In this document: in pieces, positions 31,991-58,979 of the stretch | How the letters are laid out: the number at the start of each line of letters is the position of its first letter | Numbering within the stretch: the stretch's first letter is position 1 | Assembly (NCBI GenBank): GCA_047967505.1 | Contig: CM106538.1 | Direction: 5' to 3' (one strand) | DNA: 64,000 nucleotides | Origin: Dipteris shenzhenensis | Taxonomy: Eukaryota | Notes under the pieces: generated by a model | Seen by the model: the letters and a program-made list of their open reading frames with translations, nothing else | Databases searched by the model: none | What the model was told of the DNA's origin: nothing | Position numbers and translations under genes: made by a program

Positions 31991-32089
31991 TTGACCAAAG
32001 AAGATTGCAAATCCCGTGGATTTCTCCAGCAAATGAGAGGACGAGGTAGATGCTTTAGCTCAGCACGATTTTGGCAAAGCCGATGAAGC

Positions 32090-32126
32090 TTAGGGTTTAG
32101 GGTGTAATGTTTTTTAGGGTTTAGGG
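32090..32126 (+). repeat. Short telomeric-motif tract (TTTAGGG)
   Basis: TTAGGG TTTAGGG ... TTTAGGG TTTAGGG, overlapping the viral fragment by GG. Confidence 0.8.
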
Positions 32127-32430
32127 TGATGAGGTGGGAGATTGACCGCTGTGGTATGCTTATATTGATGAGTTGCATCATCTTGGAAGCGGGTAGCATT
32201 CATAGAGGACATCCAGTAGCTCCAGCTTTCTCAGGCAGTAAACTTTGAGAAGAGGCAGCTTTCTAAGATGTCAAATCTTGTATGTCTTCAGGGCTCCACC
32301 GATTGAAAGATGGGAAGAAGAGGGGAAAGAGAGATGCATGACTTTTTTCCCATGGCTATGGCAAGGATGAAGCTTGATCATAGATTTAGAAGGGGCATCT
32401 TCAATCTGGAAAGTAGGCAATTGGGAAGAT
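32125..32430 (-). mobile_element. Endogenous caulimovirid fragment A' (post-MP region)
   Basis: Diverged duplicate of 34037-34350. Confidence 0.85.
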
Positions 32431-35269
32431 GGATTTCATCAAGGAAAGCCATGAGGGCTTTGAGTACATGATCTTGTACTTGAAGCTTGCCTTTGTGGAT
32501 ATGTTTTCCTCCCCAATAGTGACCTTTTTGGCAGAAAGAACCAAACCTTTAGCCTTATAGACCTAGACCATTTGTAAAAGATTTGCAAAATTGAAATCTT
32601 CCAGAGTTTTGTGGACTTCATGAGGCATATTATTAACATTGATAATTTTGGTTTGAGCCACAATAAGAGCCATTAAAGAATCACCAATCCCATGAGGTAG
32701 GCTGTATAGATAATGGCGCTTAGCAGAAGTGTCAGAAAAGAGACTGGCCCTATATATCAACTATTGAGCATCAGCATTATAAGCTTTGAGTTGAAAGAGA
32801 TCACAAAGTTGTAGTGCAGAAAGCGGGGCATTAGGTTGGCTGTTGCCATCAACACTTTGAAAGATCTTCTCTTTAGAAGCATCAGATAGAAATTCCCACC
32901 AATTACCAAGGACACAGGTAAATCCTTTTGTGGTTTCAACAAGAGCATCTCTACGATTGCATCTATACATAGTTACCAGAGACATCATATGACCACCATA
33001 AAAGATCTTTAGAAAGTCTTTCATTGCTTGGGGGGAAGGAGCATCAATATTGAGTATATCTCTAGGAAATGACTTGTGCATTAAACGCCTTTGTAAATCA
33101 GACTGTTCATTGAGATCTCTATCCATAAAATGAGTCTAAAATTCACCCCGCATAAATTGAGAACCGAGGACATCATGGAATTGTGTGCGGTGACCATGCC
33201 ACGGTGGTTGCTACTGCTGTTGGGATTGCTATTGATTGGTTGAGGCAGATTCTAGACTTTACACTGGATCTTCTTCCATAGGTTCAATCTTGACTCCTTG
33301 ATTCATATAGAGAGTGGGGAGTCCAATAGTAGAGGCAGATCTTGGAGAATCAGGAGGAGATTGTGGAGGGAGCTGAGGAGGTGGTGGAGGCATAAGAGCA
33401 GGTTCTTGTGGAAGATTAGGTGAAGGGATTGCTTCATAAGGGGCATGTGGGATAGTATTAGCAAAATGATTGGGTTGGTCCACTCTCATAGATGGCCCCA
33501 GTGCCAAGTATTATAGTACATAGGAAAGGTTTCAGTGGCAGGCTGTCGGTTCTCATTAGGAAGAGAGTCAGGAAAGATGGGCCAAAGCATGAGGTTAGGA
33601 GCTTTTTTGGGGCAAAAGGAATTATCAATAGGACTTGCCGATGGCAGAGGTAAGGAGGGAGGCAAAGACTTATGTAGAAGGGTGGTATGCACAGGAGGAA
33701 CAGAATCAGTAGTCAACTATTGGAGTTCTTGTAGAACAGACTAAATATTTCAGTCTAGCTTGCCAACAGCAAGTTGTAAATCATACATTGTGGTATAGCT
33801 AGCATCCAAACATACCTGTGTAGCCAGATTATGTGAATTGCACCAACTGAGTTGTTGTTGTTCAACAAGCATGTCAGCATCTGTCTCCACCAAAGCATAA
33901 GGTGCATGAATTGACTTGAGCTTGCCATCTTCCGTAGTGGATTGAAAGCCTTTAGCTTGAGGCCAATTAACAGGTGGACCATGTTCATTGGATGAAGTCA
34001 TTCAGGAGCAGCAATAATATTGTCATAATTCGTATGGTGATGAGCTGGGAGATTGACTGTTGTGGTATGCTCGTATTGATGAGTTGCATCATCTTGGAAG
34101 CGGGTAGCATTCATAGAGGACATCCAGTCATGAATAGCTTCAGCTTTCTTAGGCGGTAAACTCTGAGAAGAGGCAACTTTCTCAGATGTCAAATCTTGTA
34201 CGTCTTCAAGGGCTCCAGTGATGATTGAAACATGGGAAGAAGAGGGGAAAGAGATATGCATGACTTTTTTCCCATGGATAAGGTGAGGATGGAGCTTAAT
34301 CATAGATTTAGAAGGGGCATCTTCAATCTGGAAAGTAGGCAATTGGGAAGAGGCTTCCTGAAGAATAAACTGATAATCCATTTCCCATTTGGTTGGCATG
34401 GGAAGAGCATCATATTTGAAGTGGGTCACATCAACATTGGTGTTATCATACAAAACACATTCATCTTGGGTATTAACATGACGAGGAAGAGGATTAATAG
34501 TGATATAAGATAATTAATGCATCGGACATGGATGGCACAATACTCTGAGTGAGGCTTCATGGACAAGCCTTTAACTTGTACATAGAGATGTAGTGTCGTG
34601 GAGAGATGTGGATCAGCTAAAGACATTTTAAAATTGGGATAAACTATGGTATGAACAGGCTCACAGTTTAGACTACCATGGATAAGACCAATCCATGCAT
34701 CTTTTAGGTGAAGGTGGTGAGTATCAACAAGGCTAGCCATACAAGTAGCATTATCACCCATCCAGAACAATGGCTCTATGGCCAGAACAAAGCAATCGTA
34801 GTGTATATACTGTTAACCAGAATTTTCGAAAGATTCAATTTCTTGGGAAGTAAACAATGGAAGATACACACCGGTAGAACCTTGATCTGCTATATTTACA
34901 ACCACTTCAAAAATCTTGATATGCTTGAGAGCACAAAAATGAAAAGAACGTGTAGATATCCTCCGGATCTATGATAGGCATGTTCCAGGCAGCTTTTGGA
35001 TCAATAAGTTTAGAAGAAGAAGACGGAGAATCGGTGGAGGAAAAACGAGAAGAAAAGGAACGGATTAGACCAGCCATTAGCCAATACTTGATACTTTCCT
35101 CATGCATTTAGCTCAACCTCAACGCCTCTCTCCGGGCTTTAACGGGGAGCAATTCAACGCCTTTAGGAAAGGATAAAGAACAAACAAGGCTCTGATACCA
35201 AAAGAAGAGCAGAATACAGAATGCAGTGCAGCGTTAGATAGTAGAGGAATGGGAGCCAACAATGATACC
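32431..35269 (-). mobile_element. Endogenous caulimovirid copy A: leader, PBS, movement protein, coiled coil, Pro-rich linker, coat protein N-half
   Basis: PBS at 35200-35189; ATG at 35077 (MAGLIRSFSSRF); 30K-MP core ..ASLVDTHHLHLKDAWIGLIHGSLN..TIVYPNF; CP-like RDILNIDAP..ETTKGFTCVLGNWWEFLS; multiple stops. Confidence 0.88.
35189..35200 (-). promoter_or_regulatory. Viral tRNA-Met primer-binding site (TGGTATCAGAGC)
   Basis: Perfect match with no adjacent LTR; variants at 35872-35884 (+, TGGTGTCAGAGCC) and 57370-57359 (-, TGGTATCAAAGC). Confidence 0.9.
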
Positions 35270-35454
35270 TTTAGGGTCTAGGGTTTAGGGTTTAGGGGTT
35301 TAGGATTTAGGGTTTATGCTTGCAAACCGATTTTAGGGTTTAGGTTTAGGGTTTACTATTAGGGTTAGGGTTTTGGGTTTCGAGTTTAGGGTTTAGGGCT
35401 AAGGGTTTAGGGTTTAGGGTTTAAGGTTTCGAGTTTAGGGTTTAGGGTTTAGGG
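35270..35454 (+). repeat. Interstitial telomeric repeat (TTTAGGG)n, degenerate
   Basis: About 185 bp of TTTAGGG and variants (TCTAGGG, TTTAGGA, TTTCGAG) between head-to-head virus copies. Confidence 0.97.
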
Positions 35455-35745
35455 GGCTACCTGGAATATGCTGATCATAGATCTTGAAGATATGTATAAG
35501 TTCTCTGCTTTCCACTTCCGTGCTCTCAAGCATATCAAGATTTTGGCAGTAGTTGTGACTATTGCTAATGATGGTTCCATTGGTGGTTCCATTGGTGTGT
35601 ACCTTCCTCTATTTACTCTGCAAGAGATTGATTCCTTCAGGAACATTGGTTATCAGTATATCCACTATGGGTGTTTTGTCTTAACCAATCAAACTATTGT
35701 TTCGAATGGGTGTAAATGCTACCTGTATGGCTAGTCTTGTTGATA
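35455..35745 (+). mobile_element. Endogenous caulimovirid fragment B0 (MP 5' part)
   Basis: EDMYKFSAFHF..GYQYIHYGCFVL; diverged duplicate of about 36078-36365. Confidence 0.88.
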
Positions 35746-38700
35746 CATCATCTCCCCATTTTGTGTTCTCCCTTCCTCTCAGTATCCTTGTTAGCTCCCA
35801 TTCCTCAGCTATCTAACCCTCTGCTGCCCTTTTGCTGCTCTTTTGTTCTTTCCTGCATCCTGCTCCTCTTTTGGTGTCAGAGCCTTATTCATTCTTTACC
35901 CTTTCCAAAAGTCATTGAAGTGCTCCCTGTTGAACCCCAGAGGGAGGCGTGTGAGGTTGAGCTAAGTGCATGAGGAAAGTATTAAAGTGTCCAATGGTTG
36001 CTGTAATCCGATCCTTCTCTTCCCGTTTCTCTTCTACCTACTCTGCTTCCTCCTCTTTTGAACTTACTGACCCAAAGGCTACTTGGAATATGCCGATCAT
36101 AAATCCTGAAGATATTTATAAGTTCTATGCTTTACACTTCTGTGCTTTCAAGCATATCAAGTTTTCGGAAGTAGTTGTGAATACTGCTGTGATGAAGGTT
36201 CCACTGGTGTGTATCTTCCTTTATTTATCTGCAAGAGATTGATTCCTTCAAGAACTCTGGTTATCAGTATATCCACTATGGGTGTTTTGTCTTAGCCATT
36301 GAACCATTGTTTCGAATGGGTGTAAATGCTACCTGTATGGCTAGTCTTGTTAATACTCGTCATCTTCGCCTCAAAGATGCCAGGATTGGTCTCATCCATG
36401 GTAATCTTAATCGTGAGCCTCTCCATACTATAGTCTATCCTAATTTCAATATTTCCTTAGTAGATGAACATCTCTCGATTGCTCTTCATCTCTATGTATA
36501 GGTAAAAGGCTTGTCCATGAAGCCTTGCTCTAAATATTGTGCCATCCATGTCCGAAGTGTAAATTACCTTGTGTCCACTATCAATCCCCTTCCCTGTCAT
36601 GTGAATACTAAAGATGAGTGTATCTAGTATGGTAATACTTATGCCGATGTGACTCAGTTTAAGTTTCATGCCCTTCCCATGCCACTTGAATGGGAAATGG
36701 ACTATTAGATTGTTCTCCAAGAGGCCTCTTCCTAGCTGCCTACTTTCTAGATCGAAGATGCTCCTTCTAAATCTGTTATCAAGCTCCATCCTTGTCATAA
36801 CCATGGAAAAAGAGTTATGCGTCTTTCCTTCCCATGTTCCTCTCATGTTTCAATAGCTGGAGCTCTTGATGATGTACCAAATTCAGCATCTGAGACAACT
36901 GCCTCTGCTCAAAGTTTGCCACCTAGAAAGGCTGATGCTATTCATGATTGGATGTCCTCTACTAATGCTACGTGCCTGCACATTGATGCTACCCATCAAT
37001 ACAAGTGCGCTACACTGGTAGTTAATCTTTCGGCTCATCATCATATGAACTATGACAATATCACAACTTCTGAGCATCTGCATCTGATGAACATGGTTCA
37101 CCTGATTAATTGGCCTCGCTCCAAAGGTTTCCAGTCCACCTCAGAGGATGGCAAGCTCAAGTCGGTACATGCACCCTATGCATTGATAGAGACAAATGCT
37201 GTTGACATGCCAGTAGAGCAACAGCAACTCAATTGGTGCAATTCACATAATTTGGCTACCCAGGAATGTTTAGATGCCTGCTATACTGCACTATACGATT
37301 TGCAACTCACTGTTAATAAGTTAGATCAAAATATCTAGTCTGTTCTGCAAGAACTCCAATAGTGAATACTGATCCTATTCCCCCCGTGCATACTACTCTT
37401 ATACACAAGTATTTTTTCGAACCTTTATTTTTATCAATGCATACAAACTTTCGACACCAATATAAAAGTTTCACTTCTTAATGAAACTAATAGGAAAAAA
37501 TCATCCATGCCCACAACCGTATCCAACGGCTCTTTCTCATGGCTCCATGAGATGTGGTTGTGGGAAAGGAAGAGGGTTTAGCCACGTGATCTCGAAACTT
37601 TAGAAGAGCTTTCTGAATACTCTTTAGAATCTCCCACTTATTGCAATCTACCTTCCATCTAGTATTCACGTCCTTCTATTTTCAAACCAACCCATTTTGT
37701 ACATACACCCAATCCGCCATCCAGTTATCTTCCTCCACCCTTCTGCCATGCTCCCATCTCCACCATTTTAGCACTTGCTCCTCCTCTCCAATACTCATCC
37801 TATTCCAAAGCTTGAGATATGTCCTTCTCAACGTCCTTCCTGCTACGATCAATTCAAAAGTCTCGGCATCAGCATTGAAGGACTCTAAATCCATCTTACT
37901 ATAATCAAGGAGAATTGTAGAAAGCTCCAGTCATCAATAGATTCTCTTGATCGAAAAGTGGTAGAGCACCTCACACAATGTAAGCTCTAGTCCCTCTCCA
38001 CAGAAGCACGCCCATTTACTTATTCTATCCCTTTTACTAGTGCTTTCTCCCTCCATGACTTCTTTACCCAACCTGCTTCTCTAGTTTGCATTCTATGGAA
38101 ATGGTCCTCACCATCAAAGGGATTCTAATATGTCTTCCGCCCCATGTGTCAAAGTGTGGATCGTACTAGCCTAGTGCACACAAGATCAGCGGAAGAACGA
38201 AGGAGGCTCAAACCACACTAAGTAAGACATGAGAGGGAGATAGCAAATCTATATCTCTTGCAATAGGTGTGTTCAACAATACATGATAGGCCTCTTATAT
38301 AGAGAGTGCCCTTTGAATAGTCAACACTTGTGTGATCCTCTCATCCACATCCCTCCTTGTGGATATCCTCAATCCACATCTCCACATCATGTAGTCCACA
38401 TCCTAGGGTGGCTACTTTAATTCTTTCCTATACCATACCTTTGCACTTTAATCTATGTGCTCATGGCACCATATCTCAACACCTCCCCTTGGTGCCATGA
38501 TCCTTTGGCTACTGCAAGGTGGTCAGATGTGAGTTATATTCCATCACCTCCCCTTAGTGCTTGCATTGCTACTTAAGGTGGTAAAGTGTGGTTTTTACAT
38601 GTCAATACCTCCCCTGGGTGCTTTCATAGCTACTCTCAGGTGGTCAAATTTGATTTATAAAATATAGGCAAGGTTGGCAAGATATTTGTTTCTCAATACA

Positions 38701-41622
38701 TTCCATTGATGTCACCTTTTGGCTCATGGCTTGATGACGATGGCGTTTGCTTTTTTGCTTGACATAGCTAGTTGCATGATGCTTTGTTCTTCCATGTGCC
38801 TTAATGCTTTCTGTGTAGATGCCATGCTCTATGCTATGGTCATCTCATACACTTGTGCTTTTGGCATGCTTATGACAATGATGTGTGCATTCATGCGTCG
38901 CTTTTCCATTCGTTGCAAAGGTCTTACCAATTGATTTCTTTCAATATCGGCAGTGTCTAATTTCATACAATGATTTTGACTTGACAGGTGCATAGAGCTC
39001 AAAAAGACGATCACTTTTCCCTTTTGGAGCATGTACAAATTCTTCTTGGATTGCAAGTTACGGCTTGTTGTTTTTTTTTGTGAAGAGAGGGGCTTTTGAT
39101 GATGTGGCAGAGGAGTCACATGCTGCCTACATGCTGTGCTTGGCAAGGGGTTATTGTGCTGAGGTAGCCTTGTGCCATGTGGTAGTCTTTTAACCCAAGA
39201 CTAAGAAATTTAACTATGGTCCAAACAACTGAACCTAACCCCACTAACTTAACCACCCCTAACCATGGATAAGTTTTATCTTTGCCACGTGTCCTAAGGT
39301 GTAACCTTAGGAGAGAAAAAGAAGAGAAAACTCTACTTCTCTGTAGTGACATCGACGGCATGGGAATCTATAGCGATGGCAAATCAGCGTTAAAGAAGTC
39401 GAGTCGTCTTTGTTGAGGATGCTGCAGAGTTGATTGGTCGAGGCAGTTGTGGGTAGTGCTGGTCTTTGGAGACCGTAGGCCGTAGAGGCATCGTCGTTGA
39501 AGATGTTGGAGGAGAAGTTGTGGGACGTGCAGGAGCCATCGTTGCTATTGGAAGCTGCGTTGACATTGGCGCTAGAGCTGTGTGCTCTCATTCTCGGCAT
39601 TCCTAGCGGAGGGCGGGTTGAGAAGCTAGAACCATCATTGATTTTCCTCTTTACTGCCATTGCAATGGCATGTTGGAAACTTGTGTGTCGGTTGATGGGC
39701 ACTGCTGGTGTGCTGCTCTTGCAGGTCTGCTAGCTTTCACATAGTACTTATCATTCGCTGGAGGGTGTTTGAAGCACCGAGTCTTCCTTTGACTTGGCTC
39801 TTTGACTGAGTCGTGGTGAAGGGAGCGTCTCACTGGAAATGGCCCATGTGCTCGGGATCCTTCTTAGCTTTGAAGCACTCGTACAAGGTGACAGCGACAT
39901 CACCGAATTCTCCCAACTATTCCTTGTTCTTAGCCGACTTCAGCTCTTTCTTGGCTTTCTCCTCATCATCATAGGTACTCTAGCTATAATTACTGCTTGC
40001 ATAACCTCCATCAGCGCCGTAAGTGGACTGAGTCGAGGTATAATTAGCCTTATTGGAATATTGATCATTCTTGGTAGTTGCAAACAGCCAGGAGCTTGCA
40101 TTGGGCTGCTGGTATCCCGTGTCCCTTCCTTCTTTTCCACCACCCTTCCTCTCCTTTTGTGGGTCTTTGAGGTGATGCTTTATGCTTTGGAGACCTAAGC
40201 ACAATGGATGGCGGTGACTATGGAGAAACTTCGAGTCTCATTGGGAGCCTTCGCTTTGGAGCTGGCCCATTTGGCTGAGTGTTGGCAGTCAAGGCTTCTG
40301 TGCCTTCTTACAAAATGAAACTCTCTCTTTCGCTCCTTTACGACGAAGAAGAAACAAATCTCTCTCTTTCACACTCTCAAACTCTCTAGGAAGAAGAGTG
40401 GGTGAAAACAGAAATCTCTAATGAATGGAAATGCACGACGGAGATTTCTCTTGGACTCTCAATCTAAACTATTCTAGGCCTAGCTAACCTGCTCTAATAC
40501 CATGTCAAAGTGTGGATCATACTAGCCTAGTGCACACAAGATCAGTGGAAGAACTAAGGAGGCTCAAACCACACTAAGTAAGACATGAGAGGGAGATAGC
40601 AAATCTATATCTCTTGCAATAGGTGTGTTCAACAATACATGATAGGCCTCTTATATAGAGAGTGCCCTTTGAATAGTCAACACTTGTGTGATCCTCTCAT
40701 CCACATCCCTCCTTGTGGATATCCTCAATCCACATCTCGACATCATGTAGTCCACATCCTAGGGTGGCTACTTTAATTCTTTCCTATACCATACCTTTGC
40801 ACTTTAATCTATGTGCTCATGGCACCATATCTCAACACGGTGAACATCTTAAGAAGGTACTCAAGCCACTGTTGGATGATTTACAAATTGTTCACCAATG
40901 TTCATCTCCTTTCTCCCTTGACTATATTAGTCCCCCTCCTGAATATGTTGATACTCTTGCACCTTCTCCTACTCCTTCTAATCCTTTTAGCCCTCTAACT
41001 GATGATGCACAAAGTCCCCTCATAGGTTCTGAACTTGATGACTACATCCAAGCCTTATCAAAGAAGATCAACAGAATAGTCTGAGAACTTACCAACATAC
41101 TCTACTCATGCTATCCTCCCTTCAAGAGATGCAGTAGAAATTTATCCAAGACTATACAACAGTGAATCCCCTTTGGCCTTCAAAGAGATATTTCAACATC
41201 AAGTATCACTTCCCCTGAAAGAGAATTCAAAGCCTTTCAAGGAAAGCCCTTATGGGTTCACTCAGGAAGACCATATCCTTTGCAATCAAGAGATAAAGGA
41301 ACTACTAGATATGGGTTTGATTTCTCACACTCACTTTGAATGGGCTGCAACTACCTTCTATGTCAATAAGCATTCTGAACAAAAACGTGGTAAGAAGAGG
41401 TTGGTGATCAACTATAAACCTCCCAATAAAAATCTGGTATCTTTTTCTTACCCTATCCCCAACAAGGAGTATTTGATGAAAAAGATTATAGGATCCACGA
41501 TCTTCTCCAAGTTTGACCTTAAAGTAGGTTTTTGGCAAGTTGGCCTAATCCTAGAAGACCACCATAAAATTGGTTTTGTTGTTCCTCAAGGTTTCTACCA
41601 ATGGAATGTTCTCCCCTTTGGT
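35746..41622 (+). mobile_element. Endogenous caulimovirid copy B: leader, PBS, MP, (CP deleted), partial AP, RT N-half; interrupted by an LTR element
   Basis: ATG at 35994; YIHYGCFVLAIEPLFRMG..LVNTRH; RT FYVNKHSEQKRGKKRLVINYK..FSKFDLKVGFWQV..YQWNVLPFG (41173-41622). Confidence 0.9.
38147..40837 (-). mobile_element. Young non-autonomous LTR retrotransposon (335-bp LTRs, about 2-kb internal region without pol)
   Basis: LTRs 38147-38481 and 40503-40837 (TG..CA, 4 mismatches by eye); PBS TGGTATTAGAGC at 40502-40491; PPT AAGGGGAGG next to 38482; flanks CCATG/CGGTG versus empty site CCGTG in copy C. Confidence 0.92.
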
Positions 41623-41627
41623 ATGAC

Positions 41628-42260
41628 ATCTTTTTTTTTGCCGAAAAAACAGTGCTGATTATATTACTTCGAAAAAACAAGATACATGGGGTCAGTTTTG
41701 CAGCTGACGGGGCTATGTTCACAAATCGGATGCAGCCCTAAGTGGAAACAAAAAGCTCTCTCTCACAGAGGGATCAGGCGGGTGTGAATAAACAGCCAGA
41801 GAGGTGGTGAATAGCGCCACTGAAGGCCCTGAGAAGTATGCACGAAGAAGAGGCCCTGCATATCCCAATCTCGGAGGAAACGTCTCCGCTTCTCCCGGCC
41901 AGCCCGAGAATCCCCCTGTATCTAGTCCCACTGGCCTCTGAGTGTGTGGATAATCTCGCTCCAGATGTCGGCCATGACCTGGGCAGTCGAAAGAGAGGTA
42001 CCACCGAGGATCTGCACGAAGCGCGAGGTCCAAATGTGCCATGCGACGATGCTACTAATAATCTCCCAGACTGGCTGCCTCTCCTGAGATCCTGTGTTCG
42101 CCTCTGCCAAGTGCTACGGGATGCCCACAAGCGGCCCCCAAGTCCCCTGTGTGATAAGGAACATGGGGTCCTGCGGGCCTGCCTCAAACAACTAATGATA
42201 GCCAAGTGTGGTGCTGCACTAGCAGAACGCGCTTCACGGGCTTTGCCAACAACATCTTGA
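41628..42260 (-). mobile_element. LINE 3' end with poly(A) tail, truncating viral copy B
   Basis: QPVWEIISSIVAWHIWTSR (41922-42110); T10 run at 41630-41639. Confidence 0.7.
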
Positions 42261-42834
42261 GCTACAGCATCTACCTCGACCAATCATTTGCTGGAGGAAT
42301 CCACGAGACCTTCGCTCTTTTTTTGTCAAATCACGTCTTAAGATGCCTAGGTCTAGTTAGGCTGTGCAGGTCCCACCTTGTAAGACACTACCTGGAGCAT
42401 ATGCCTTTATGGCATATGAGACCTCTTAGGCTCGGGTCGTCATTTTGGGACTTTCCACATTCTTTTTGGACCATTTTTTAGCATTTCAGGGTTAGTTTTG
42501 GGCTAACATAACTGGTCCACAGAAATTAAATTTTTTATTTTGTGGGCTATTGACACGTGGCGATGCCCCAAGAGTAATCCCATAAGCAAAGAGGACAAAA
42601 AGTGGCCTTATAGTGGGGAGCTTCTCTCATTTGTATTCTCACATTTTTGGTGTTCCACTGATGAGCTTGAGAATATCAAGCAAAACTAGTTTGGAACAAA
42701 GCACCGGTTTGTAATACAAAGAGGATTTTTTATCTCTTTTTGTCTCTCTTTCGTCTTTATGTCTTTGTGTCTTTGTATCTTTGTGTGAGATACTTGTGCA
42801 GCTTTGTTGCTCATGCATTGCTCTTGTGTATGAG

Positions 42835-48800: not shown

Positions 48801-48879
48801 TCTTTTTTCATTCATTTATATATGTGTTTGAGTATTGTACATAACCAGGGTAAAGGCACAGTGACCTTTAACCCCCACA
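42835..48879 (-). mobile_element. Full-length decayed Copia (Tnt1/Tork-like) with very short LTRs and 5-bp TSD
   Basis: LTRs 42835-42986 and 48708-48879; TSD ATGAG at 42830-42834 and 48880-48884; PBS-like at 48705-48694; gag KFDGTNF, WILDFGASFHVT, RYKARLVTKG, LYVDDML, KHIEVRYHFIRE. Confidence 0.95.
44209..44381. mobile_element. hAT-type MITE (173 bp) inserted in Copia RT
   Basis: 13-bp TIRs CCTAGGGAGTTCA / TGAACGCCCTAGG (1 mismatch); 8-bp TSD GTTGCACC at 44201-44208 and 44382-44389; removal restores IYMVQPKGF. Confidence 0.88.
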
Positions 48880-49216
48880 ATGAGTACTTGTGCAACTTGT
48901 TGCTCATGTACTGTTTCGTGCTTGCTTGAATGTTTAGTACTTGAACATCAATTTGTTCATGTATAGTGTGTGCTCTTAGCCATCTTTTTGTCCATGAGAT
49001 TTTGGTTGCTTAGTTTTGTGTTTAGTACTTGAGTATTCTACCTTACTCATGTATTCTTAGCACTCTAAGCACATTTGCACACTTCACAAGCACATTCTTC
49101 ACACAATTTTTTAGACACAGTTTTAAGCATGTAACCGGCCCTCGAAAATTCCATTTTTTGCTGCCGTAGCTAGCCAATTACTCACACTTCACTGCTACAC
49201 ACCTTTTCTTATTTTT

Positions 49217-49234
49217 CTAAAACCCTAAACCCTA
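49217..49234 (-). repeat. Short telomeric-motif tract at the start of viral copy C
   Basis: CTAAAACCCTAAACCCTA; the final CCTA overlaps viral sequence homologous to about 33600. Confidence 0.65.
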
Positions 49235-49876
49235 GTCTTATGCTTTGGCCTATTTTCCCTTAGTCTGTTCAACCTTCTACTGAAAATTCCCTCATCAACG
49301 ATAATACTTGGCAGTGGGGCCACCACTGGGAATTGGCTGATCCAACCCATTTTGCCAATACTACTCTACGCGACCCCTTTGAACAGTTTCTGCTCCTCTG
49401 CCATGGCGTGCTGATCCTATGCCCCCCATCAACGATAATACTTGGCACTGGGGCCACTGACGAGAATTGACTAATCCAACCCATTTTGCCAATACTACTC
49501 TATGCGACCCCTTTGAAGCAATTCCTGCTCCTCTGCCATAGCCTATTGATCCTATGCCTCTGCCACTTCCTCAGCTCCCTTTGCAATCACCTCCTAATTC
49601 TCCCAGATCTGAATCTTCGTCCTCCACTGACCTCCCTACTCTGTATAATGCTAAGGTCGAACCCATGGTTGAAGATCTGACAGCCCCGCCACAACGACAG
49701 CAGCAGTAGCCACCATGGCATGGTCATTGTATAGCTTGTCATGATGCCCTTGGTTCTCAGTTTATGCATGCTGAATTCCAAACCCATTTTATGGATGGTG
49801 ATCTTTACGAGTAACCTGATTTGCAGCGACATTTGCAGCACAAATCTTTTCTGGGTTACATACTCAATATTGATGC

Positions 49877-52800
49877 TATTAAATTACACAGTGTAGCGGA
49901 ATAGAAATTGAACAAAGAATAGAGAGTACACAGCAAACTGGAGAGGAATAAATATTTCCTTCAATACTGATGTAGTACAGATGATGGCTTCGTCCACCTG
50001 TGCACTCCCACAATGGAGCTTAGATGGCGATCTAGACAAATACTAGGTGAAGAGGTACTAGCTAGAAGATCTAATCTGATATGAACTAATCTGATTTGTA
50101 TAGTTGCGATTAAGGATGTAAAGCATAGTATTGACAGCCTTAGTCCAAAAGTGGTTTGGCAGTCCAGCACCTTTTAACATACACCTCCCCATCTCCACCG
50201 TGGTCCACATTCGACGTTCAACAACTGAATTTTGCTGAGGCATATGTGGTGTCATCATTTGTCGCTTGATCCCTTTGCTCTTGCAAAAATCTCCAAACTC
50301 TGTAGAAACAAACTCACCACCACCATCCGATCTGATTTTCTTTACTTTTCTCCTTGTTTCATTCTCAACAAGTTGTAGCCATGCTTTAAATTACCAAAAG
50401 CTTGAGCCTTTTTGCAAAGAAAGTACACCCATATCTTCCTACTATAGTCATTAACAATCAATAGAAAATAGGAAGATCCCCCCAAGGCCTGTGTAGGCAT
50501 CTTACTGCACAAGTTAACATGCACCAACTCTAGAGGAGTGTTTGCTCTATTCTTGCTTTCTTGTGGGAATGCCTTTCTCTGTTGCTTGCCCATCATGCAA
50601 GCTTCACATGGTTCTTTGATTTCTGTGACTGCAGGTCCGCACAAGTTAACATGCACCAACTCTAGAGGAGTGTTTGCTCTATTCTTGCTTTCTTGTGGGA
50701 ATGCCTTTCTCTGTTGCTTGCCCATCATGAGAGCTTCACATGGTTCTTTGATTTCTGTGACTGCAGGTAAGTGAGCAACCATACCTTACTTCTGCATCTC
50801 CTTCAGCACTGCAAATCTGATGTGGCTGAATCTTTCATGCCAAATTCTGCTTGTGCCCACTCCAGCGGTGGCTATAAGAGCACTTAGCTCATACAGGTTG
50901 TTCCTCCTTACTCCTATGCCAACAAGATTGCCTGCACTATCCAAAATTTTTGCTCCTATCTTGTTGAACCTCACCTCATGGTCAAGGTCAGTTATGGAAG
51001 CAAGTGATAGAAAATTTCTCTTGATTTGTGGAACATACAGCACATTAGATAGTTTCTCCATTCACAGAAACAAATGAAACCATATCTATACCCTCAACAA
51101 GCCATTTTGTGTTATTACCAACCGTCATGGTGATGGGTTCATGTAGAGGCTGCATGGAACAATATAGACCCTTCTTGTAGGTCATGTGATGGGAGCCACC
51201 ACTATCCAACACCCATGAATCAGTGGTTGAAATTTCTTGAACTAAGGAACACTCTTCCTCAATGGCTAGAAATAGATCCAACTCTGCTTCTGCTGTGTTA
51301 GCTGTCTCTTTTCCCTTATCTATCTTCTTCAGGATACCATTCTTTTCATTTGCTTTCTTAACCCAGCAATCTGCAATCATATGGTTCTTCTTTTTGCAGT
51401 AGAAGCATCCTCCTTGAAACTTCTTCTTGCCGCCCTTCTTCTTTTTGTCACCACTAGTAGAGGACTCACCTTTGGTGGAGGAACCACCTTTGCCTTTCAT
51501 AGTGGCAGAGAAAGTAGCATCATTGCCACCTCCATCTCAAGCTTTAAGCCTCAATTCCTCCTCCTTAAGTAAAGCATAGAACTCCTCAAATGACAATGGT
51601 TGTTGGGGTCTCACCTGAGTGTTAAGCGCTGTTACCAGTCCATCAAATCTTGGTGGACATATCCGGAGACACCACCGAGCTAGCTCTTCGCTAGTCTTTT
51701 GTATCCCAGCACCAGCCATCTGGTCATGTAGACTTTTGATTCGGGTTATGAACACCTCTACTGTCTCTCTATTAAACTTCTCTACTGCGAGCTGATTCTT
51801 TAGGTTCTAGATCCTTGTTTGATTCCACGTCTCATACTAACTCTTTAATATGTTCTAGGCCACAGTTGCCTTAGATGTATGCTGAATCAAGGTCAAAACA
51901 CTATTAGTAGTACTTGTAACCAGGGCACACAGAGCATCTGTGTTCCTGCATTTCCAGAAGGTCAACATTAGGAGGTATCATACTCCCCAGATTTGCTGGG
52001 TCAGGGGTTCCTTGTGGTTCTAGGTCATAGTCCCCAGTACTGGTCTCCAGAAGCTCATATGAATCTAGAATAGCAGTAATTTTAAACTTCCACAGAGTGT
52101 AGTTCGTACCATCTAGCTTGCCTTCAGTGAAGGTTGGTGGGTGAATCCTCAATGCCTAAATTATTGGTTCAGCAGTAGCTGCTGAACTCGAGCCACTTTC
52201 TATGGAGCCACTTCCTGTTGCCATCACTCCATATGCTATTGAAGCCCTCGCCTCTCTTCTATTCTTCGATCCTTAGAGCCGCCTGGGCTCTGATACCATG
52301 TTAAATTACATGGCACAGTAGAACAAAAACTGAACAAAGAATAGAGAGTACACAGTAAACTAGAGAGGAACAAACTTTCCCTTCAACACTGATGTAGTAC
52401 AGATGATGGCTCCATCCACCCATGCGCTCCCACAGTGGAGCTTAGATGGCGATCTAGATAGATACTAGGTGAAGAGCTACTAGCTGGAAGATTTGATCTG
52501 ATCTGAACTGATTTGATACAATGGACTAGGGAGGTCGCCTCTTTATAGCTATGAGGGCAGTAGTCGGATCAACGTAGTCGGTGGAGTCAACTAGTCGACC
52601 TAGTCAGTGGAGCTGACCAGTCAGCCTAGTCAGTGGAACCGACTAGTCGTCCATGGAATATTCAAAGAATATTCCCTATATCGTTGCCTCGGGGGCTCGC
52701 CCATGGAATATTCAAAGAATATTCCCTATATCGTCGCCTCGGGGGCTCGCCCCCAAACTCCCACCAAAAGGGCTAGCGGCCCCCCTGGGACCCCCCAGTT

Positions 52801-53024
52801 GGGGGCCAGCTGGCCCCCAGGCTCTAGCAAGAATAAGGGGTTCCCACACAATCACCCTTCTACCATCAACAGTCTCATTGATAGACCTCATCTGACATGC
52901 AAGTTAGGATCCATCCAGTGTCCCAGGCTCACACATGGCTTCTCCTCATATGGGGGCCTTACAACTTGAGCACCTTGGACCACTAGTGGTTACCAGGAGG
53001 GTAGGGCATTGAGCATATCTAACA
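49877..53024 (-). mobile_element. Internally deleted Copia (5' LTR, PBS, gag, protease, partial integrase, partial 3' LTR) with TSD
   Basis: 5' LTR 52299-53024; PBS TGGTATCAGAGC at 52298-52287; KLDGTNYTLWK, CFYCKKKNHMIADC, WVLDSGGSHHMT; LTR 3' part at 49877-50100; TSD GATGC at 49872-49876 and 53025-53029; RT/RNase H absent. Confidence 0.93.
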
Positions 53025-54257
53025 GATGCTACTTCTCCCCAAGCAATGAAAGATCTCTTGAAGATCTTCTATGGGCATATGATGTCCTTAGTCATCGTGT
53101 ACAGATGGAATCCACGTGATGTTGTAGTCGAGGCTACCAAAGGCTTTACTGGTGTTCTCAGTAATTGGTGGGAGTTCCTCTCTAATGAATCTAGAGTAGA
53201 TCTTTTCGAGTCTTGACGGTTATCATCAACCCAATGCGCCTAATGCCTTCAAAAGAAGCTATCTTCTACTCAAATGCTGGAAGAGGTAGAGGCAGAGGTA
53301 GAGCAGGCCGATTTGGAGGCCATGGCAGAAATTAGAATATGTAGCAAATTCAAGAAAACTAGTCCTATGGATGAGGGCGTGGTAACCTTAGAGGTAGGGG
53401 GAGCCAAAGAGGTCATGGTGGATGGCAGAGAGGCCAAAATGCAAACAACAATGTTGAATGCTACTACTATGGTAAAGATTGCTCCGAAAAGCTGCGCAAC
53501 TCCCAACACAACCAGCTCAAAGGATTTCTCTCTTCTGTTGCGGATCCAGACTAATGGGAAGTTGTATCCCAAATTGAGTCTAGAGAATCAATGCTTCAAT
53601 GTTCAAAATCTGATACTCTACAATGTTTTGCTTGTCAGCTAGATGATTCCAATGACTATTCCCGCATGGTAAGGTCCGATGAGGATGATCCCCAAATTTA
53701 CAGCTTGATGAATCACCCTCATCATCGAGATCCCTTCCACATTGATATTGAGATATATTTGACCAGCTCCAGTGATACTCCTATTGAGCAGCCTCTCCCA
53801 TGACCCTGTCCAAAGGCTCTTTCTCACGGCTCCATGAGACGCGGCCATGGCAAAGGAAGAGGGTTTAGCCGTGATCTCTAAACTTTAGAAGAGCTCTCTT
53901 AATACTCTTTAGAATCTCCCACTTACCTCAATCCACCTTCCATCTAGTATTCAGGCCCTTCTGTTTTCAAACCAACCCATTCTATACATACACCAAATCC
54001 ACCATCCAGTTATCTTCCTCCACCCTTCTGGTGTGCTCCTATCTCCACCATCTTAGCACCTGCTCCTCCTCTCTAGCCAATAGTCCCTAATAATCATCCT
54101 ATTCCAAAGCTTGAGATATCTCCTTTTCAATGTCCTTCCTACTCTACGATCAATTCAAAAGTCTCAGCATCAACATCGAAGGACTGAAAATCCATCTTAC
54201 TATAATCAAGGAGAATTGTACAAAGCTCTAGTCATCAATAGACTTTCTTGATCGAAA

Positions 54258-56538
54258 GTGGTAGAGCACCTCACACAATGTAAAGAAGCAGGCCCATCTA
54301 CTCATTCTATCCCTTCTACTAGTGCTTTCTACCTCCATGACTTCTTTACCCAACCTGCTTCTCTAGTTCGCAATCCTATGAAAACTTGGTTAATCAATGT
54401 ACAGCCACATTTTCCGGATGTTTCTCCTTATTTACTAATTGCTCTTATATATACTGGATCTGGATTCAATATTTGTAAATATAGAGCACTTCCACAGTCA
54501 TGTTGGAATGAATTACCATCACGTGACCAAATGCATGGATCTTTTATGGGCGGTGGAGTAATAGCCTGCAAGCACATTGCTCTTGGCATTCCTATTTCTC
54601 TTGGAGGCCAATCTACCACCATCAACTTCTACCAACTAAATTCTCAAGGAGTTGATATGGTTATAGGTAATGATTTCCTTAATCATCATCTTCCCTTTGG
54701 GTTCTCTGCTATGGAAATGGTCCTCACCATCAAAGGGATTCTAGTATGCCTTCCAGCCCGTGAACAGCTCAAGAAGGTACTCAAGCCTCTGTCAGATGAT
54801 TTATAAATTGTTCACCAATGTTCATCTCCTTTCTCCCTTGACTATATTAGTTCCCCTCTTGAATATGTTGATACTCCTACACCTTCTCCTGCTCCTTCTG
54901 ATCCTTTCAGCCCTCTTATTGATGATGCACAAAGGCCCCTCATAGGTTTTGAACTTGATGACTACATCCAAAGGCTTATCGAAGAAAATCAAAAGAAGAG
55001 TCTGAGAACTTCCCAACATACTCTACTCATGCTATCCTCCTTATCTCCTCTCTCCCTCCCTTTCTTCTATAATGTGTGGCAGCAACACACACACACTGAG
55101 AGATGCATCAGAAATTTATCCAAGACTGCAACAACAGTGAATCCCCTTTGGCCTTCAAAGAGATATTTCAACATTAGGTATGACTTCCCCTAAAAGAGAA
55201 TTCAAAGCCTTTCAAGGAAAGCCCTTATGGGTTCACTTAGGAAGATTGTATCCTTTGCAATCAAGAGATAAAGGAATTGCTAGATATGGGTTTGATTTCT
55301 CACTCTTGCTCTGAATGGGTTGCAGCTGCCTTCTATGTCAATAAGCATTCTGAACAAAAACATGGTAAGAAGAGGTTGGTAATCAACTATAAACCTCTCA
55401 ATAAATGTCTGGTATCTGTATCTTACCCTATCCCCAACAAGGAGTATTTGATGAAAAAGATTACAAGATCCACGATCTTCTCCAAGTTTGACCTTAAAGC
55501 AAGTTTCTAGCAAGTTGGCCTGATCCCAGAAGACCGCCATAAAACTGGTTTTGTTGTTCCTCAAGGTTTCTACCAATCGAATGTTCTCCCCTTTGGTCAA
55601 AATACTGCTCCAGTCAAGTTTCAAAGATTTATGGATTCTATTTTTGGATCCCACCATGAATTCTGCTTAGTTTATATTGATGACATCTTGGTATATATTA
55701 AGGATGTTGCTTCACATCTACAGCATCTAACCATTGTTTACAATTTGATCAAAGCAAAAGGCTTTTCCCTTTTTACCAAGAAGATCATTATTGGCCAAGA
55801 AAGCATTGAATTCCTTGGCATCCATATCCACAAAGGTAAACTCCAAATGCAAGATCATGTGCTAAAAGCTCTTATGGCTTTTCTTGATGAGATCCGAGAT
55901 CGTACTCAGCTCCAATGTTTCCTTGGTTGCCTAAACCACCTATCTTCTTTCTATGAGCAATTAGCATGAGATAGATATGCTCTTCAACTTTGTCTCCGAA
56001 AGAATGGTCAACCTTGGAGCAATCTACAAACCCAAGCTATACAACACATCAAGGAACGTGTCCAGCACCTACCAACTCTTAGCATTCCTCCAAACATGGT
56101 CTTCTAATAATTGAGACAGATGCTTCTGACAATTTTTGGGGTGTTGTTCTCCTTGAAAGGACCTCTGCCCAAGAAAGAATATGTGCCTTCCAGTCCAGCA
56201 CCTTCCAAGGAGCAGAACAAAACTATCTTTCCATTCAAAAGGAAATACTGGCGGTCAAAAGAGCAATCCAAAAATTGGAACTCTTCATTGTAAAGAAAAC
56301 TTTTATTATTCGTACTGATAATCAGAATTTCAAAACATTATGCACCCACAAGATAGATAAGCAAATCGACCGAGGTCATTTGGCCCGCTGGCAAGAATTC
56401 TTCACCATGTACGACTTCACGATCGAATGGAAATGCACCTCCAATGTCCTTTGTGATATGTTATCATGTGAAGGTGTGACCTACTGGCAAGAAAGAAATG
56501 GTGGACTCCTCCTACCCACTAGTAATGGCCCTGGATAA
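54258..56538 (+). pseudogene. Caulimovirid pol: aspartic protease, reverse transcriptase, RNase H
   Basis: ALIYTGS (DTG decayed)..MVIGNDFL; KKRLVINYKPLN; LVYIDDILVY; IIETDAS..KEILAVKRAIQK..IRTDNQN..LARWQ; stop at 56538; no integrase follows. Confidence 0.93.
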
Positions 56539-56559
56539 GAATAATGTCGTGTCATGGTA

Positions 56560-56800
56560 ACTAGACACTACTTGATGTCCCAGGTAAGACCTTCACCTCG
56601 TGACATGTACATAAGCTTCCTACGATGATTAGACACTGCTTGATGTCCTAGATAAGACCTTCACCTTTAAGTCATGTCACCTTTTGGACAGTTCATGTAC
56701 AAAAGATTCCCACACTAAGGAAGTGGAAGACAACTAGCCATCTACCAAGAAGTTGGATACAGCTAGCCACTAACTCTCCCTTCTATATAAGAGCAGTCCT
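56560..56800 (+). promoter_or_regulatory. Putative viral pregenomic-RNA promoter
   Basis: Two ~36-bp direct repeats (56563-56598, 56631-56666) and CTATATAAG at 56783-56791, about 400 bp upstream of the PBS position; conserved in copy D (TATA at 57807-57801). Confidence 0.65.
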
Positions 56801-57190
56801 TAGTCTTGCAATATGCTTCCGAGCTTCAAGCTCTCTTGCAACCTTGCTTTTCCTTAAGTTTATGTCTCCAGTTCTCTTCGTTCTTTAGCTTTTGCTTCTT
56901 GACTTACCTTTGCTTCGCCCCTTTGTCTCCTTCCCCCATGCCTATTAGTTATTACTTTTTCACCATCACCTATGAGATTTTCTTTGCTATAGATGCTTCC
57001 TCTTCTCTTCTGTGCACTTCCCATCCTACTGCTTTATCCCATTTACATTTGCATGATCCATGCATCATCTCCCCATTTCATGTTCTCCCTTGCTCTCGGT
57101 ATCCTTGTTGGCTCCTGTTCCTCAACTATCTAACCCTCTGCTGCCCTTTTGCTCCTCTTTGGTTCTTTCCTGCATCCTGCTCCTCTTTTG

Positions 57191-57256
57191 AACCCTAAAC
57201 CCTAAACTCTAAACCTTGAACCTTAACCCTTAAACCCTAACCCTAATTCCTAAACC
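57191..57256 (-). repeat. Interstitial telomeric repeat (CCCTAAA on plus), degenerate
   Basis: AACCCTAAACCCTAAACTCTAAACCTTGAACC...CCTAAACC between tail-to-tail virus copies C and D. Confidence 0.95.
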
Positions 57257-58920
57257 CATTGGATACTTTAATAATTTCCTCACGCAGTTAGCTCAACCTC
57301 ACACACCTCTCTCTGGGCTTCAATGGGAGCACTTCAACAATATTAAAGAATGAACAAGGCTTTGATACCAAAAGAGGAGCAGGATGCAGGAAAGAACAAA
57401 AGAGGAGCAAAAGGGCAGCAGAGGGTTAGATAGCTAAGGAACGAGAGCCAACAAGGATACTGAAAGGAAGGGAGAACACAAAATGGGGAGATGATGCATG
57501 GATCATGCAAATGTAAACGGGATAAGCGGTAGAAGGGGAAGTGCACAAAAGGGAAGAGGAAGCATCTGTAGCAAAGAAAAGATCGTAGGTGATGGTGAAG
57601 AATTAATAACTAACAGGCATGGGAGAAGGAGACAGAAGGGCGAAGCGAAGGTAAGTCATGAAGCGAAAGCTAAAGAATGAAGAGAACTGGAGACATAAAC
57701 TTAAGGAAAGGCAAGGTTGCAAGGAAGCTAGAAGCTCGAAAGTATATTGCAAGACTAAAGACTCATACAAGCTCTGCCTTCTACTGAGCCAAGGGTGCTC
57801 TTATATAGAAGGGAGAGTTAGTGGCCAGCTATATCCCACTTTTCAGTGGATGGCTAGCTGTCTTCCACTTCCTTAGTGCGGGAATCTTTTTTACATGAAG
57901 TGACCCAAAGGTGACATGACTTAAAGGTGAAGGTCTTACCTGGGACATCATGCAGTGTCTAATCACCATAGGAATCTTATGTACATGTTGTCACAAGGTG
58001 AAGGTCTTACTTGGGACATCAAGCAGTGTCTAGTCACCGTGACAAGACATTATTCTTATCCAGGGCCATTATCGGTGGGTAGGATGAGTCCACCATTTCT
58101 TTCTTGCCAATAGGTCACACCTTCATGTGATAACATATCTAGAAGGACATTGGAGGTGCCTTTCTTCCATTCAACTGTGAAGTTGTACATGGTGAAGAAT
58201 TATTGCCAATGGGCCAGACAACCTCGGCCGATTTGCTTATCTATCTTGTGGGTGCAAAATGTTTTGAAATTATGATTATCAATGCAAATAATAGAAGTTT
58301 TATTTACAATGAAGAGTTCCAATTTTTGGATTGCTCTTTTGACCGCCAGTATTTCCTTTTAAATGGAGTGATAGTTTTGTTTTGCTCCTTGGAAGGTGCC
58401 AGACCCAAAAGGCACATATTCTTTCTTGGGCAGAGGTCCTTTCAAGGAGGACAACACCCCAAAAATTGTTAGAGGCATCTGTCTCAATTATTAGAAGACC
58501 ATGTTCGGAGGGAATGCTAAGAGTTGGTAGGTGCTGGACATGTTCCTTGATGTTTTGTACAGCTTGGGTTTGTAGATCGCGTTCCAAGGTTTACCATTCT
58601 TTCGGAGACAAAGTTGAAGAGCATATCTATCTCGTGCTAGTTGCTCATAGAAAGAAGACAAGTGGTTTAGGCAACCAAGGAAACATTAGAGCTGAGTACG
58701 ATCCCGGATCTTATCAGGCAAAAACATAAGAGCTTTTAGCACATGATCTTATATTTGGAGTTTACATCTGTGGATATGGACACTAAGGAATTCAATGCTT
58801 TCTTGGCCAATAATGATCTTCTTGGCGGAAAGGGCTAAGCCTTTTGCATTGATCAAATTGTAAACAATGGTTAGATGTTGTAGATGTGAAGCAACATCCT
58901 TACTATATACCAAGATGTCA
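57257..58920 (-). mobile_element. Endogenous caulimovirid copy D: RT C-half, RNase H, intergenic region, PBS, up to the ORF1 ATG
   Basis: DILVYSKDVASHLQHL, LLIIETDASNNFWGVVLLE; reverse complement of about 55680-57190, continuing through the PBS to ATG at 57259. Confidence 0.92.
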
Positions 58921-58979
58921 TACCAATCTTCGAAATGTCCATCCCTAGCTCCTGCGAGCCCTCCTCCCCTCTCCGTAGC

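Follow-up and report, generated by a model that had tools for sequence, protein, structure and literature searches.

Plant pararetroviruses lack an integrase, and their entry into the germ line is understood in outline only, as a matter of break repair, often at (TA)n sequences. The locus described here, in which caulimovirid fragments adjoin telomere repeats, raises the question of how the two came to be joined. The sequence base was a single window of 64,000 nt from Dipteris shenzhenensis (assembly GCA_047967505.1, contig CM106538.1), that is, one locus in one assembly.

Viral fragments and telomere tracts in the window

The anatomy of the locus, the positions of its junctions and the polarity of its repeats could be established directly (Table 1). 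The DNA beside the repeats is caulimovirid. A movement protein (MP) domain (PF01107, E = 6.6e-9) lies at 34429-34812 on the minus strand, copy C gives Pfam matches to RVT_1 (E = 3.6e-20) and then RT_RNaseH (E = 3.8e-23), and TBLASTN with a caulimovirid-type polyprotein yielded 40% identity. A, B and D each contain a tRNA-Met-type PBS (TGGTATCAGAGCC, 0-1 mismatch), and the motif agrees with that given for a caulimovirid in the excerpted text of 10.1101/2025.07.25.666790. No integrase match was found among the viral ORFs scanned, which were a subset of frames. The viral map is circularly permuted: D runs through RNase H, leader and PBS to +125, A and B run from leader and PBS into MP, and the stretch between the RNase H ORF and the PBS is just ~650 nt long.

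Table 1. Features of the virus-telomere locus, in order along the window.
Feature	Position	Strand	Remarks
X, first ~343 nt of a retrotransposon LTR	31746-32088	+	truncated exactly at T1 start
T1, telomere tract	32090-32126	G-strand on +	two 2-unit blocks with an 11-nt spacer between
Block A, divergent strain, mosaic	32127-35268	-	BLASTN/TBLASTX mapping, junction alignments, MP Pfam match
A, MP-region fragment	32127-32429		
A, RT fragment	32431-~32556		
A, capsid-side region	~32560-33600		
A, MP, then PBS, then leader	33664-35268		PBS 35188-35200, exact match; ends ~88 nt upstream of PBS
T2, telomere tract	35270-35454	G-strand on +	26 degenerate units, 72% matches, 9% indels
MP N-terminal region, fragment of ~290 nt, sense	35455-35742	+	86% identity to 36077-36356
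Copy B, sense	35743-41622	+	leader (-130), PBS (35872-35884), MP, partial RT
Y, non-viral retroelement-like DNA	41623-42834	-	adjoins B end; T9 run 41631-41639
Copia LTR retrotransposon	42835-48880	-	RVT_2, gag, Pol_BBD; LTRs; TSD ATGAG; PBS 48693-48705
T3, telomere tract	49217/49220-49234	G-strand on -	2.1 exact units only
Copy C, sense	49235-57190	+	capsid-side, protease, RT 55241-55966, RNase H 56083-56535, leader
T4, telomere tract	57191-57256/7	G-strand on -	9.7 units, 77% matches
Copy D, antisense	57257-~58921	-	RT, RNase H, leader, PBS 57358-57370, ~+125 nt
LINE	58922-64000	+	GC-rich 5' region, weak endonuclease match, RVT_1 E = 1.4e-26; leaves window

The viral pieces represent more than one strain and have been interrupted by later elements. 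Block A is ~77% identical to B and D, and a lone C at 35269 separates it from T2. Copy B is interrupted at ~38143-40839 by a 2.7 kb insertion bounded by LTRs, and ~1.4 kb found in A and C is missing from it. Copy C, which terminates 2 nt inside the PBS, holds a 3.1 kb LTR-retrotransposon insertion (49878-53024, TSD GATGCT), and D, 88% identical to C, is cut at its RT end at ~58921 and at its other end stops at ~+125 nt, where the putative polyprotein ATG lies. In alignment, the start of X coincides with the terminus of the insertion that lies between TSDs in copy C, an element in which a tRNA-Met PBS adjoins the LTR. Y has no Pfam match and no similarity to the viral blocks, and resumes at 48886-49216 on the other side of the Copia element, which is a later clean insertion outside the virus-telomere structure. 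Pairwise divergence is 11.5% for C and D, 13.7% for the MP N-terminal fragment and B, 14-15% for B and C, and 10.7% for the two A-strain pieces; these values are similar to one another, and the LTRs of the insertion within C differ by 14.7%, a pattern that fits one epoch of integration.

The window contains exactly four TTTAGGG-type tracts, at the positions reported in a first-pass annotation of this DNA. A two-unit repeat pattern matched 14 times against 0.03 expected in the window scan, and all 78 occurrences of exact repeat 10-mers in the 64 kb fall within T1-T4, with none outside. The tracts are unidirectional, 18-185 nt long and non-terminal. T2 includes a 17-nt non-telomeric insert and two instances of the variant unit TTTCGAG, 49 nt apart, and T4, on which a 1.5 kb imperfect palindrome is centred, is perfect on the side of copy C and degenerate on the side of copy D. 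T3, whose left flank is non-viral, is a very short tract, and copy A has a telomere-like sequence of its own (CTCCTAACC) at the homologous viral site.

Junctions between viral ends and telomere repeats

Each junction was mapped by alignment with a homologous copy that is continuous across the breakpoint. The alignments bear out that the tracts directly abut caulimovirid DNA, six of the eight tract ends being viral at base resolution. The first-pass annotation had gone further and placed repeats at six of six outer viral ends, which is too generous: there are 11 viral breakpoints, with repeats at six, three virus-virus joints without them (~32430 and ~32558 inside A, and 35743-35746, where the MP N-terminal fragment meets the leader of copy B), and two against retroelements. 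Its proposal that LINEs cut the two remaining ends is plausible at ~58921, given the RVT_1 match, but at 41622 copy B adjoins Y. BLASTN/TBLASTX mapping located no remainder of copy B in the window, so a LINE cut at 41622 is unproven and the window does not give the original outer junction. The short overlaps between virus and repeat that it described are present, as GG at 32125-6 and 35455-6, CC (= GG) at 57256-7 and CCTA at 49231-4, the last being a 4-nt overlap of T3 with the start of copy C; microhomology of 2-5 nt was seen at four of the six viral junctions.

In the window, telomere repeats coincide with viral fragment ends far more often than chance allows: random placement in 1,000,000 trials never put more than two of the four tracts at a viral breakpoint. 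None of the four tracts is free of virus, among the other retroelement termini of the region at least eight lack a telomere motif, and Tandem Repeats Finder detected no (TA)n array at viral ends in the window. In the herpesviruses HHV-6 and Marek's disease virus, viral DNA is likewise joined to telomere repeats, but their own genomes carry the repeats and integrate at telomeres by homology. Integration of this type does not apply here, as leader and PBS are continuous in the uninterrupted copies B and D, with no repeats at the sites where A and C join the tracts; the virus therefore does not carry them.

Three of the six repeat-joined viral ends lie within 130 nt of the PBS, at +2 (C), -88 (A) and +125 (D), with P ~1e-3 for a ~6.4 kb unit and a 130-nt window picked after seeing the data. 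Ends this close to the site of minus-strand priming fit the joining of free replicative viral DNA ends, and the same clustering of viral ends is described for rice endogenous RTBV-like sequences in the consulted part of PMC526188. This evidence bears on a reading that is not specific to the virus, in which the locus was left by chromosome-end fusion, by rearrangement or by misassembly and lies among clustered endogenous virus copies by coincidence; the association would then be uninformative on how the virus integrates. The G-strands of the two clusters do face each other (T1 and T2 on plus, T3 and T4 on minus), T3 joins non-viral DNA and T1 a broken LTR, as in generic fusions, and the association was seen at a single locus in one assembly. 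Nevertheless, we regard this reading as improbable: six viral tract ends, three of them at or near the PBS, point to free viral ends rather than breaks in integrated copies, and at least eight of the region's other retroelement termini have no telomere motif. The palindrome arms have diverged to 77-88% identity, which marks the structure as old and argues against a read artefact, a missed adapter or an assembly duplication.

Possible origins of the repeats

A homologue of X at 42231-42330, within Y and 80% identical to part of X, continues beyond the truncation point without telomere repeats. Since X is truncated exactly at T1, the flank did not originally have the repeats, which were added to a broken end or became joined to one. 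We tentatively favour the explanation that viral DNA was captured in the course of break repair, during which telomerase lengthened free 3' ends, although the case for it is far from secure. The locus would then be an ancient break-repair scar in which at least four independently truncated caulimovirid pieces, from two strains and from linear or open-circular DNA, were end-joined to one another and to broken retroelement DNA. Between independent molecules, telomerase would first have added TTTAGGG to a free 3' end, the broken LTR X in the case of T1 and viral ends in the case of T2, T3, and T4, and the extended end would then have been ligated to the next fragment. Possible primers lie 5' of each G-strand (X, the A antisense end at -88, the C antisense end and the D sense end at +125), and two of these four ends show register with the repeat, through the nucleotides TAGG and GG. 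From these features we infer telomerase action, its timing, and the making of the whole structure in one or a few episodes.

Several features count against telomerase extension. Two of the four proximal junctions are without register, a stray C stands at 35269, and the three virus-virus joints have no repeats. T2 and T4 are degenerate, with the T2 variant recurring, and repeats newly made by telomerase should at first be perfect; the decay could be due to age or to an origin in an old array. T1 and T2 around A, and T3 and T4 around C, are co-oriented, an arrangement that independent telomerase events would give one time in four. A variant of the proposed mechanism, in which a former healed chromosome end captured virus serially, would be favoured by the same co-orientation.

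Co-orientation is also what a landing pad predicts, that is, one or two break-prone interstitial or subtelomeric arrays that existed beforehand and were split by viral ligation into T1 plus T2 and T3 plus T4. Repeated NHEJ or MMEJ of linear viral DNA would have been the route, making it the telomere-repeat equivalent of the (TA)n bias known for endogenous caulimovirids; a fragile simple repeat with viral filler is the accepted (TA)n model in the excerpts of PMC4241990 and PMC8256270. The degenerate tracts and the higher-order duplication in T2 are also as in old arrays. We hold this origin, the main rival, to be possible but somewhat doubtful. The truncation of the LTR at T1 means that the array itself would need an earlier break and addition, B and D on the far sides of T2 and T4 require two hits per array, one at its very edge, and virus-free tracts number zero of four in the window. 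The junction phases are uninformative here because of the microhomology.

Telomeric-repeat RNA, G-rich or C-rich, could also have been reverse-transcribed by a viral or other RT and co-ligated with viral DNA at breaks, with template switching or a separate cDNA as the source of the tract. Retrotranscribed telomeric RNA has been proposed for some interstitial telomeric sequences (PMC7215372, in the portion consulted), RT and viral cDNA ends are abundant in infected cells, and the -88 and PBS +2 joints lie in the strand-transfer region. However, no TATA-like motif occurs ~30 nt upstream of the -88 end, which thus bears no mark of a pregenomic RNA 5' end, PBS +2 is the 5' end of minus-strand DNA and could not be extended by template switching, and T1 is attached to a host LTR rather than to viral cDNA. 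We judge such a route highly improbable.

Telomerase extension, if it occurred, need not have been habitual. The first-pass annotation inferred a telomere-linked route of integration for this lineage; as a rule for the lineage this is not supported by one ancient locus, in which as few as one or two repair episodes may be preserved. It seems rather unlikely that free replicative pararetroviral ends in this plant lineage are routinely capped by telomerase as broken chromosome ends are, with virus-telomere chimeras as normal integration intermediates.

Relation to known systems and significance

We found no description of virus-telomere joints of this kind in the searchable literature. Hepatitis B virus (HBV), a hepadnavirus, is an animal pararetrovirus whose double-stranded linear DNA integrates by NHEJ, and we know of no telomere-repeat filler at its junctions. 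It resembles the present case as a pararetrovirus without integrase whose junctions cluster at the ends of a linear replicative form (PMC526188, consulted in part). EPRVs at (TA)n, namely florendoviruses and rice RTBV-like sequences, are attributed in the excerpts of PMC4241990, PMC526188, and PMC8256270 to host break repair by NHEJ/MMEJ, again without integrase. As far as these excerpts describe them, their copies are rearranged, truncated and clustered as here, with microhomology at the joints and viral ends concentrated near the intergenic region and discontinuities. The present locus differs from them in that the adjoining simple repeat is TTTAGGG, with no (TA)n at any viral end, and in that repeats occur also between viral molecules and not only between virus and host.

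The addition of repeats at breaks has a parallel in mammals, where telomerase-linked telomeric repeats are inserted at sites of double-strand-break repair with in-register nucleotides (PMC7215372, in the sections consulted). The resulting interstitial telomeric sequences, like those here, are described there as short unidirectional tracts at repair joints, with NHEJ-type changes and some register. The same sections concern chromosomal breaks in primates, rodents and horses and involve no viral DNA, whereas three of the four tracts of the plant locus start on viral ends in the reading proposed above. By this analogy we propose that the locus may be a plant counterpart of mammalian telomeric insertion, acting on viral DNA ends.

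The locus gives a hint that viral DNA may be captured by a route not yet described. Even as the accident of a single locus, it would still be a well-resolved complex repair scar. If telomerase capping were routine, TTTAGGG tracts would be expected at viral ends genome-wide, centred on the minus-strand priming site. A telomere-linked route, if true, would explain mechanistically how interstitial telomeric repeats can arise in plants and would link the endogenisation of viruses to cells with active telomerase, those of meristem and germ line.

Telomere-type tracts and the viral DNA they adjoin

The two-unit telomere pattern TTTAGGGTTTAGGG, with at most one mismatch allowed, has 14 matches in the 64-kb window against 0.03 expected from shuffles, and Tandem Repeats Finder returned four telomere-type arrays (T1-T4), every one of them unidirectional. 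All 78 exact repeat 10-mers, counted on either strand and in every phase, lie within these tracts, and none occurs elsewhere in the 64 kb. Within T2 (35373-35447), the variant unit TTTCGAG together with two perfect units occurs twice, 49 nt (7 units) apart, which shows a higher-order duplication inside the tract. T1 contains an 11-nt spacer, and T2 a 17-nt insert.

Viral DNA is confined to 32127-58921 of the window, and all of its copies carry stops and frameshifts throughout. Pfam scanning of stop-to-stop ORFs recovered movement protein (MP), reverse transcriptase (RT) and RNase H domains, and a tRNA-Met-type primer-binding site (PBS) is present three times; its motif, TGGTATCAGAGCC, is also the one given for the PBS in an endogenous caulimovirid of a conifer (10.1101/2025.07.25.666790). 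Copy D runs from RT and RNase H through a leader of ~650 nt to the PBS and then to +125, copies A and B run from leader through PBS to MP, and the viral map is circularly continuous across these three copies. Judged from sequence, the viral DNA is caulimovirid, and a distant member since its RT is only ~40% identical to the closest proteins in a large protein collection.

Features of the virus-bearing region, in window coordinates
Feature	Coordinates	Strand or orientation	Details
X, truncated LTR	31746-32088		first ~343 nt of an LTR
T1	32113-32127, other block from 32090	G-rich strand +	two 2-unit blocks
J1	32126/32127		repeat and internal MP-region site
Block A	32127-35268	antisense	mosaic of four pieces
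A, piece 1	32127-32429		MP-region fragment
A, piece 2	32431-~32556		RT fragment
A, piece 3	~32560-33600		capsid-side region
A, piece 4	33664-35268		MP-PBS-leader
Viral movement protein, PF01107	34429-34812	-	E=6.6e-9
PBS	35188-35200	-	0-1 mismatch
J2	35268/35269		A antisense end ~88 nt upstream of PBS, one C, then TTTAGGG
T2	35270-35454	G-rich strand +	26 units, 72% matches, 9% indels
J3	35454/35455		repeat and internal MP site
MP fragment	35455-35742	sense	~290 nt, joined directly to copy B leader
Copy B	35743-41622	sense	LTR-bounded insertion and internal deletion
PBS	35872-35884	+	0-1 mismatch
RVT_1	41080-41655	+	
Non-viral retroelement-like DNA	41623-42834 and 48886-49216		~1.5 kb, split by Copia
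Copia insertion	42835-48880		clean, TSD ATGAG
T3	49220-49234	G-rich strand -	2.1 exact units
J4	~49231-49235		repeat and internal site between MP and capsid side
Copy C	49235-57190	sense	capsid-side region to leader
LTR-retrotransposon insertion in C	49878-53024		3.1 kb, TSD GATGCT
RVT_1	55511-55966	+	
RNase H	56083-56535	+	
J5	57190/57191		C ends ...CTCTTTTG, 2 nt inside PBS
T4	57191-57257	G-rich strand -	9.7 units, 77% matches
J6	57256/57257		D sense strand ...CCAATGG, then GTTTAGG
Copy D	57257-58921	antisense	
PBS	57358-57370	-	0-1 mismatch
LINE right of D		+	RVT_1 E=1.4e-26, weak endonuclease match

The first-pass annotation had joined six of six outer virus ends to telomeric repeats. Six viral ends do carry them, but the breakpoints number 11 rather than 8, the others being three virus-virus joints (~32430, ~32558 and 35743-35746) without telomere repeats and two ends against retroelements. 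The description of the latter two as cut by LINEs is reasonable for 58921, whereas at 41622 it is not demonstrated, because the adjoining fragment has no Pfam match and, in our own reading, one frame only vaguely like a LINE C-terminus, and the remainder of copy B is nowhere in the window. That fragment contains a T9 run and has 100 nt in common with X. In the 5' region of the LINE that truncates D, low-complexity sequence forms a long, degenerate, GC-rich array of CCCTCGCC type (59026-59358), and the ORFs there gave no Pfam match.

Four tracts of the observed lengths were placed at random in the 64 kb 1,000,000 times, with touching defined as lying within 5 nt of a viral breakpoint, of which there are 11. 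One or more tracts touched a breakpoint in 14,699 trials, two did so in 74, and more than two in none; the observed number is four. The association between tracts and virus ends is real and non-random, a solid observation at a single locus.

Junctions at base resolution

Junctions were each aligned with a homologous copy continuing uninterrupted past the breakpoint. Copies B and D run through the sites where A and C join repeats, so the virus does not itself carry the repeats, and the reading that they are part of it was rejected; past the position of J5, for example, D and B carry on as GTATCA. The nucleotide overlaps reported earlier were confirmed (GG at J3 and J6, CCTA at J4), and the overlap at J1 measures 2-5 nt. 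Two tract ends are non-viral: at 32088 X is truncated, its homologue at 42231-42330 continuing beyond, and the DNA adjoining 49216 resembles no viral block (0 of 4 comparisons scored above shuffles, whereas the positive control did). Copy A reads CTCCTAACC at the site homologous to J4, but that T3 is mere diverged viral sequence is unlikely: the DNA to its left is non-viral by those four comparisons, and by our own arithmetic an exact repeat 14-mer is expected ~0.003 times per 64 kb.

The stretch 55680-58921 forms a 1.5-kb imperfect palindrome, its centre occupied by T4 together with 123 nt of asymmetric viral sequence, and a weaker palindrome (77%) is centred on T2 (arms 33664-35268 and 35782-37414). 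The C/D arms are 88% identical over 1554 nt and the A/B arms 77% over 1643 nt; at only 77-88% identity, a technical palindrome was rejected. Two further readings were discarded, a single duplicated joint because the six junctions lie at different positions and the tracts are unlike in sequence, and one inverted duplication giving both clusters because junction positions and content differ. That generic end fusion, rearrangement or misassembly produced the joints we regard as improbable.

Origin of the tracts

A DNA end is available on the 5' side of each G-strand: T1 has X there, T2 and T3 have the antisense ends of A and C, respectively, and T4 has the sense end of D. At its far end T1 is joined to A, T2 to the MP fragment, T3 to non-viral DNA and T4 to the PBS end of C. 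Because the tracts are unidirectional, with an extendable end on the 5' side of each G-strand and a ligated far end, we tentatively favour telomerase extension: free 3' ends (those of X, A, C and D) may have been extended by telomerase and would then have been ligated to another fragment, during one or more end-joining episodes that captured viral DNA. This would be analogous to interstitial telomeric insertions at mammalian break-repair sites, where telomerase is implicated by nucleotides in register with the repeat and by inserts derived from telomerase RNA (PMC7215372). The exact truncation of LTR X at T1 shows that, here at least, a broken end was either extended with the repeats or ligated to them.

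Of the six viral ends joined to telomere repeats, three are no more than 130 nt from the PBS, among them J6, ~125 nt beyond the PBS start, and the start of the B leader at -130 is a fourth end within that distance. For a ~6.4 kb unit the clustering of the three has a P value of ~1e-3, which is indicative only, since the 130-nt limit was set post hoc; over six ends, the probability that one falls within 2 nt of the PBS start is ~0.005. On one view, what becomes joined are the free ends of the replicative form, whether open-circular or linear (PMC526188), and the concentration of viral ends around the priming site agrees with it. The end at -88 was also considered as the 5' end of the pregenomic RNA and rejected, no TATA-like motif being found upstream.

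Viral integration into a pre-existing, fragile telomere-repeat array is a more doubtful reading. In its favour, and against telomerase extension, both tracts flanking A share one orientation, as do those flanking C, the tracts are degenerate, T2 with its 49-nt higher-order duplicate, and the accepted model for (TA)n is integration into fragile simple repeats (PMC4241990; PMC8256270). An origin of the tracts by reverse transcription of telomeric RNA appears very unlikely. The earlier telomere-linked interpretation is partly supported: the association is non-random and the repeats are not viral, while the mechanism had been left between telomerase and a landing pad.

Age, nested elements and relatives

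Divergence is 11.5% between C and D, 13.7% between the MP fragment and B, 14-15% between B and C, 10.7% between the two A-strain pieces and ~23% between A and B or D; the two LTRs of the insertion within C differ by 14.7%. By sequence comparison, these values would fit one old integration epoch with two co-circulating strains and nested retrotransposon insertions afterwards.

Nested in copy B is a young, non-autonomous LTR element of 2.7 kb (38143-40839), bounded by 336-nt direct repeats 98.8% identical, with a tRNA-Met-like PBS at 40490-40502(-) and ORFs without a Pfam match. The LTR-retrotransposon remnant in C has a PBS at 52286-52298(-) and internal tandem repeats of 26, 50 and 132 nt in its LTRs, and X is a second LTR of this family, cut off at T1. 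The capsid-side region of C carries a 134-nt tandem duplication, 88% identical, at 49289-49558. The Copia target (42800-42834/48881-48930) is a short tandem-like repeat, TACTTGTGCA.CTT.GTTGCTCATG, on both sides of the TSD. For the RT of the Copia element, the best matches to named sequences do not exceed 60% identity, and the best unnamed ones reach 73%. Outside the virus-bearing region, DNA at 5443-5903 and 21290-21637 in the left part of the window is also tandemly duplicated, the periods being 108-180 nt.

In viral contigs the RT protein had 8 pattern matches, of which none was confirmed as a related locus, and a 25-nt leader stretch had no match in metagenome or viral contigs. RT alignment in metagenome contigs found 17 loci at 24-42% identity; the two-unit telomere motif is present in 0 of the 17, which, being short and distant, say nothing on this lineage. 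The full-text literature, with most subscription-journal papers and all supplements (e.g. PMC4241990 Supplementary Fig. 2, on empty sites) outside its scope, yielded no link between endogenous pararetroviruses (EPRVs) and telomeres, and the pararetrovirus/telomere co-occurrences examined were unrelated. In its accessible text, a 2021 review (PMC8256270) names no neighbours other than AT-rich or (TA)n repeats and retroelements, and 'telomer' is absent from that of the caulimovirid survey preprint (10.1101/2025.07.25.666790). The locus is a previously undescribed variant of known processes, namely the capture of EPRVs through break repair and the insertion of telomere repeats where breaks are rejoined.
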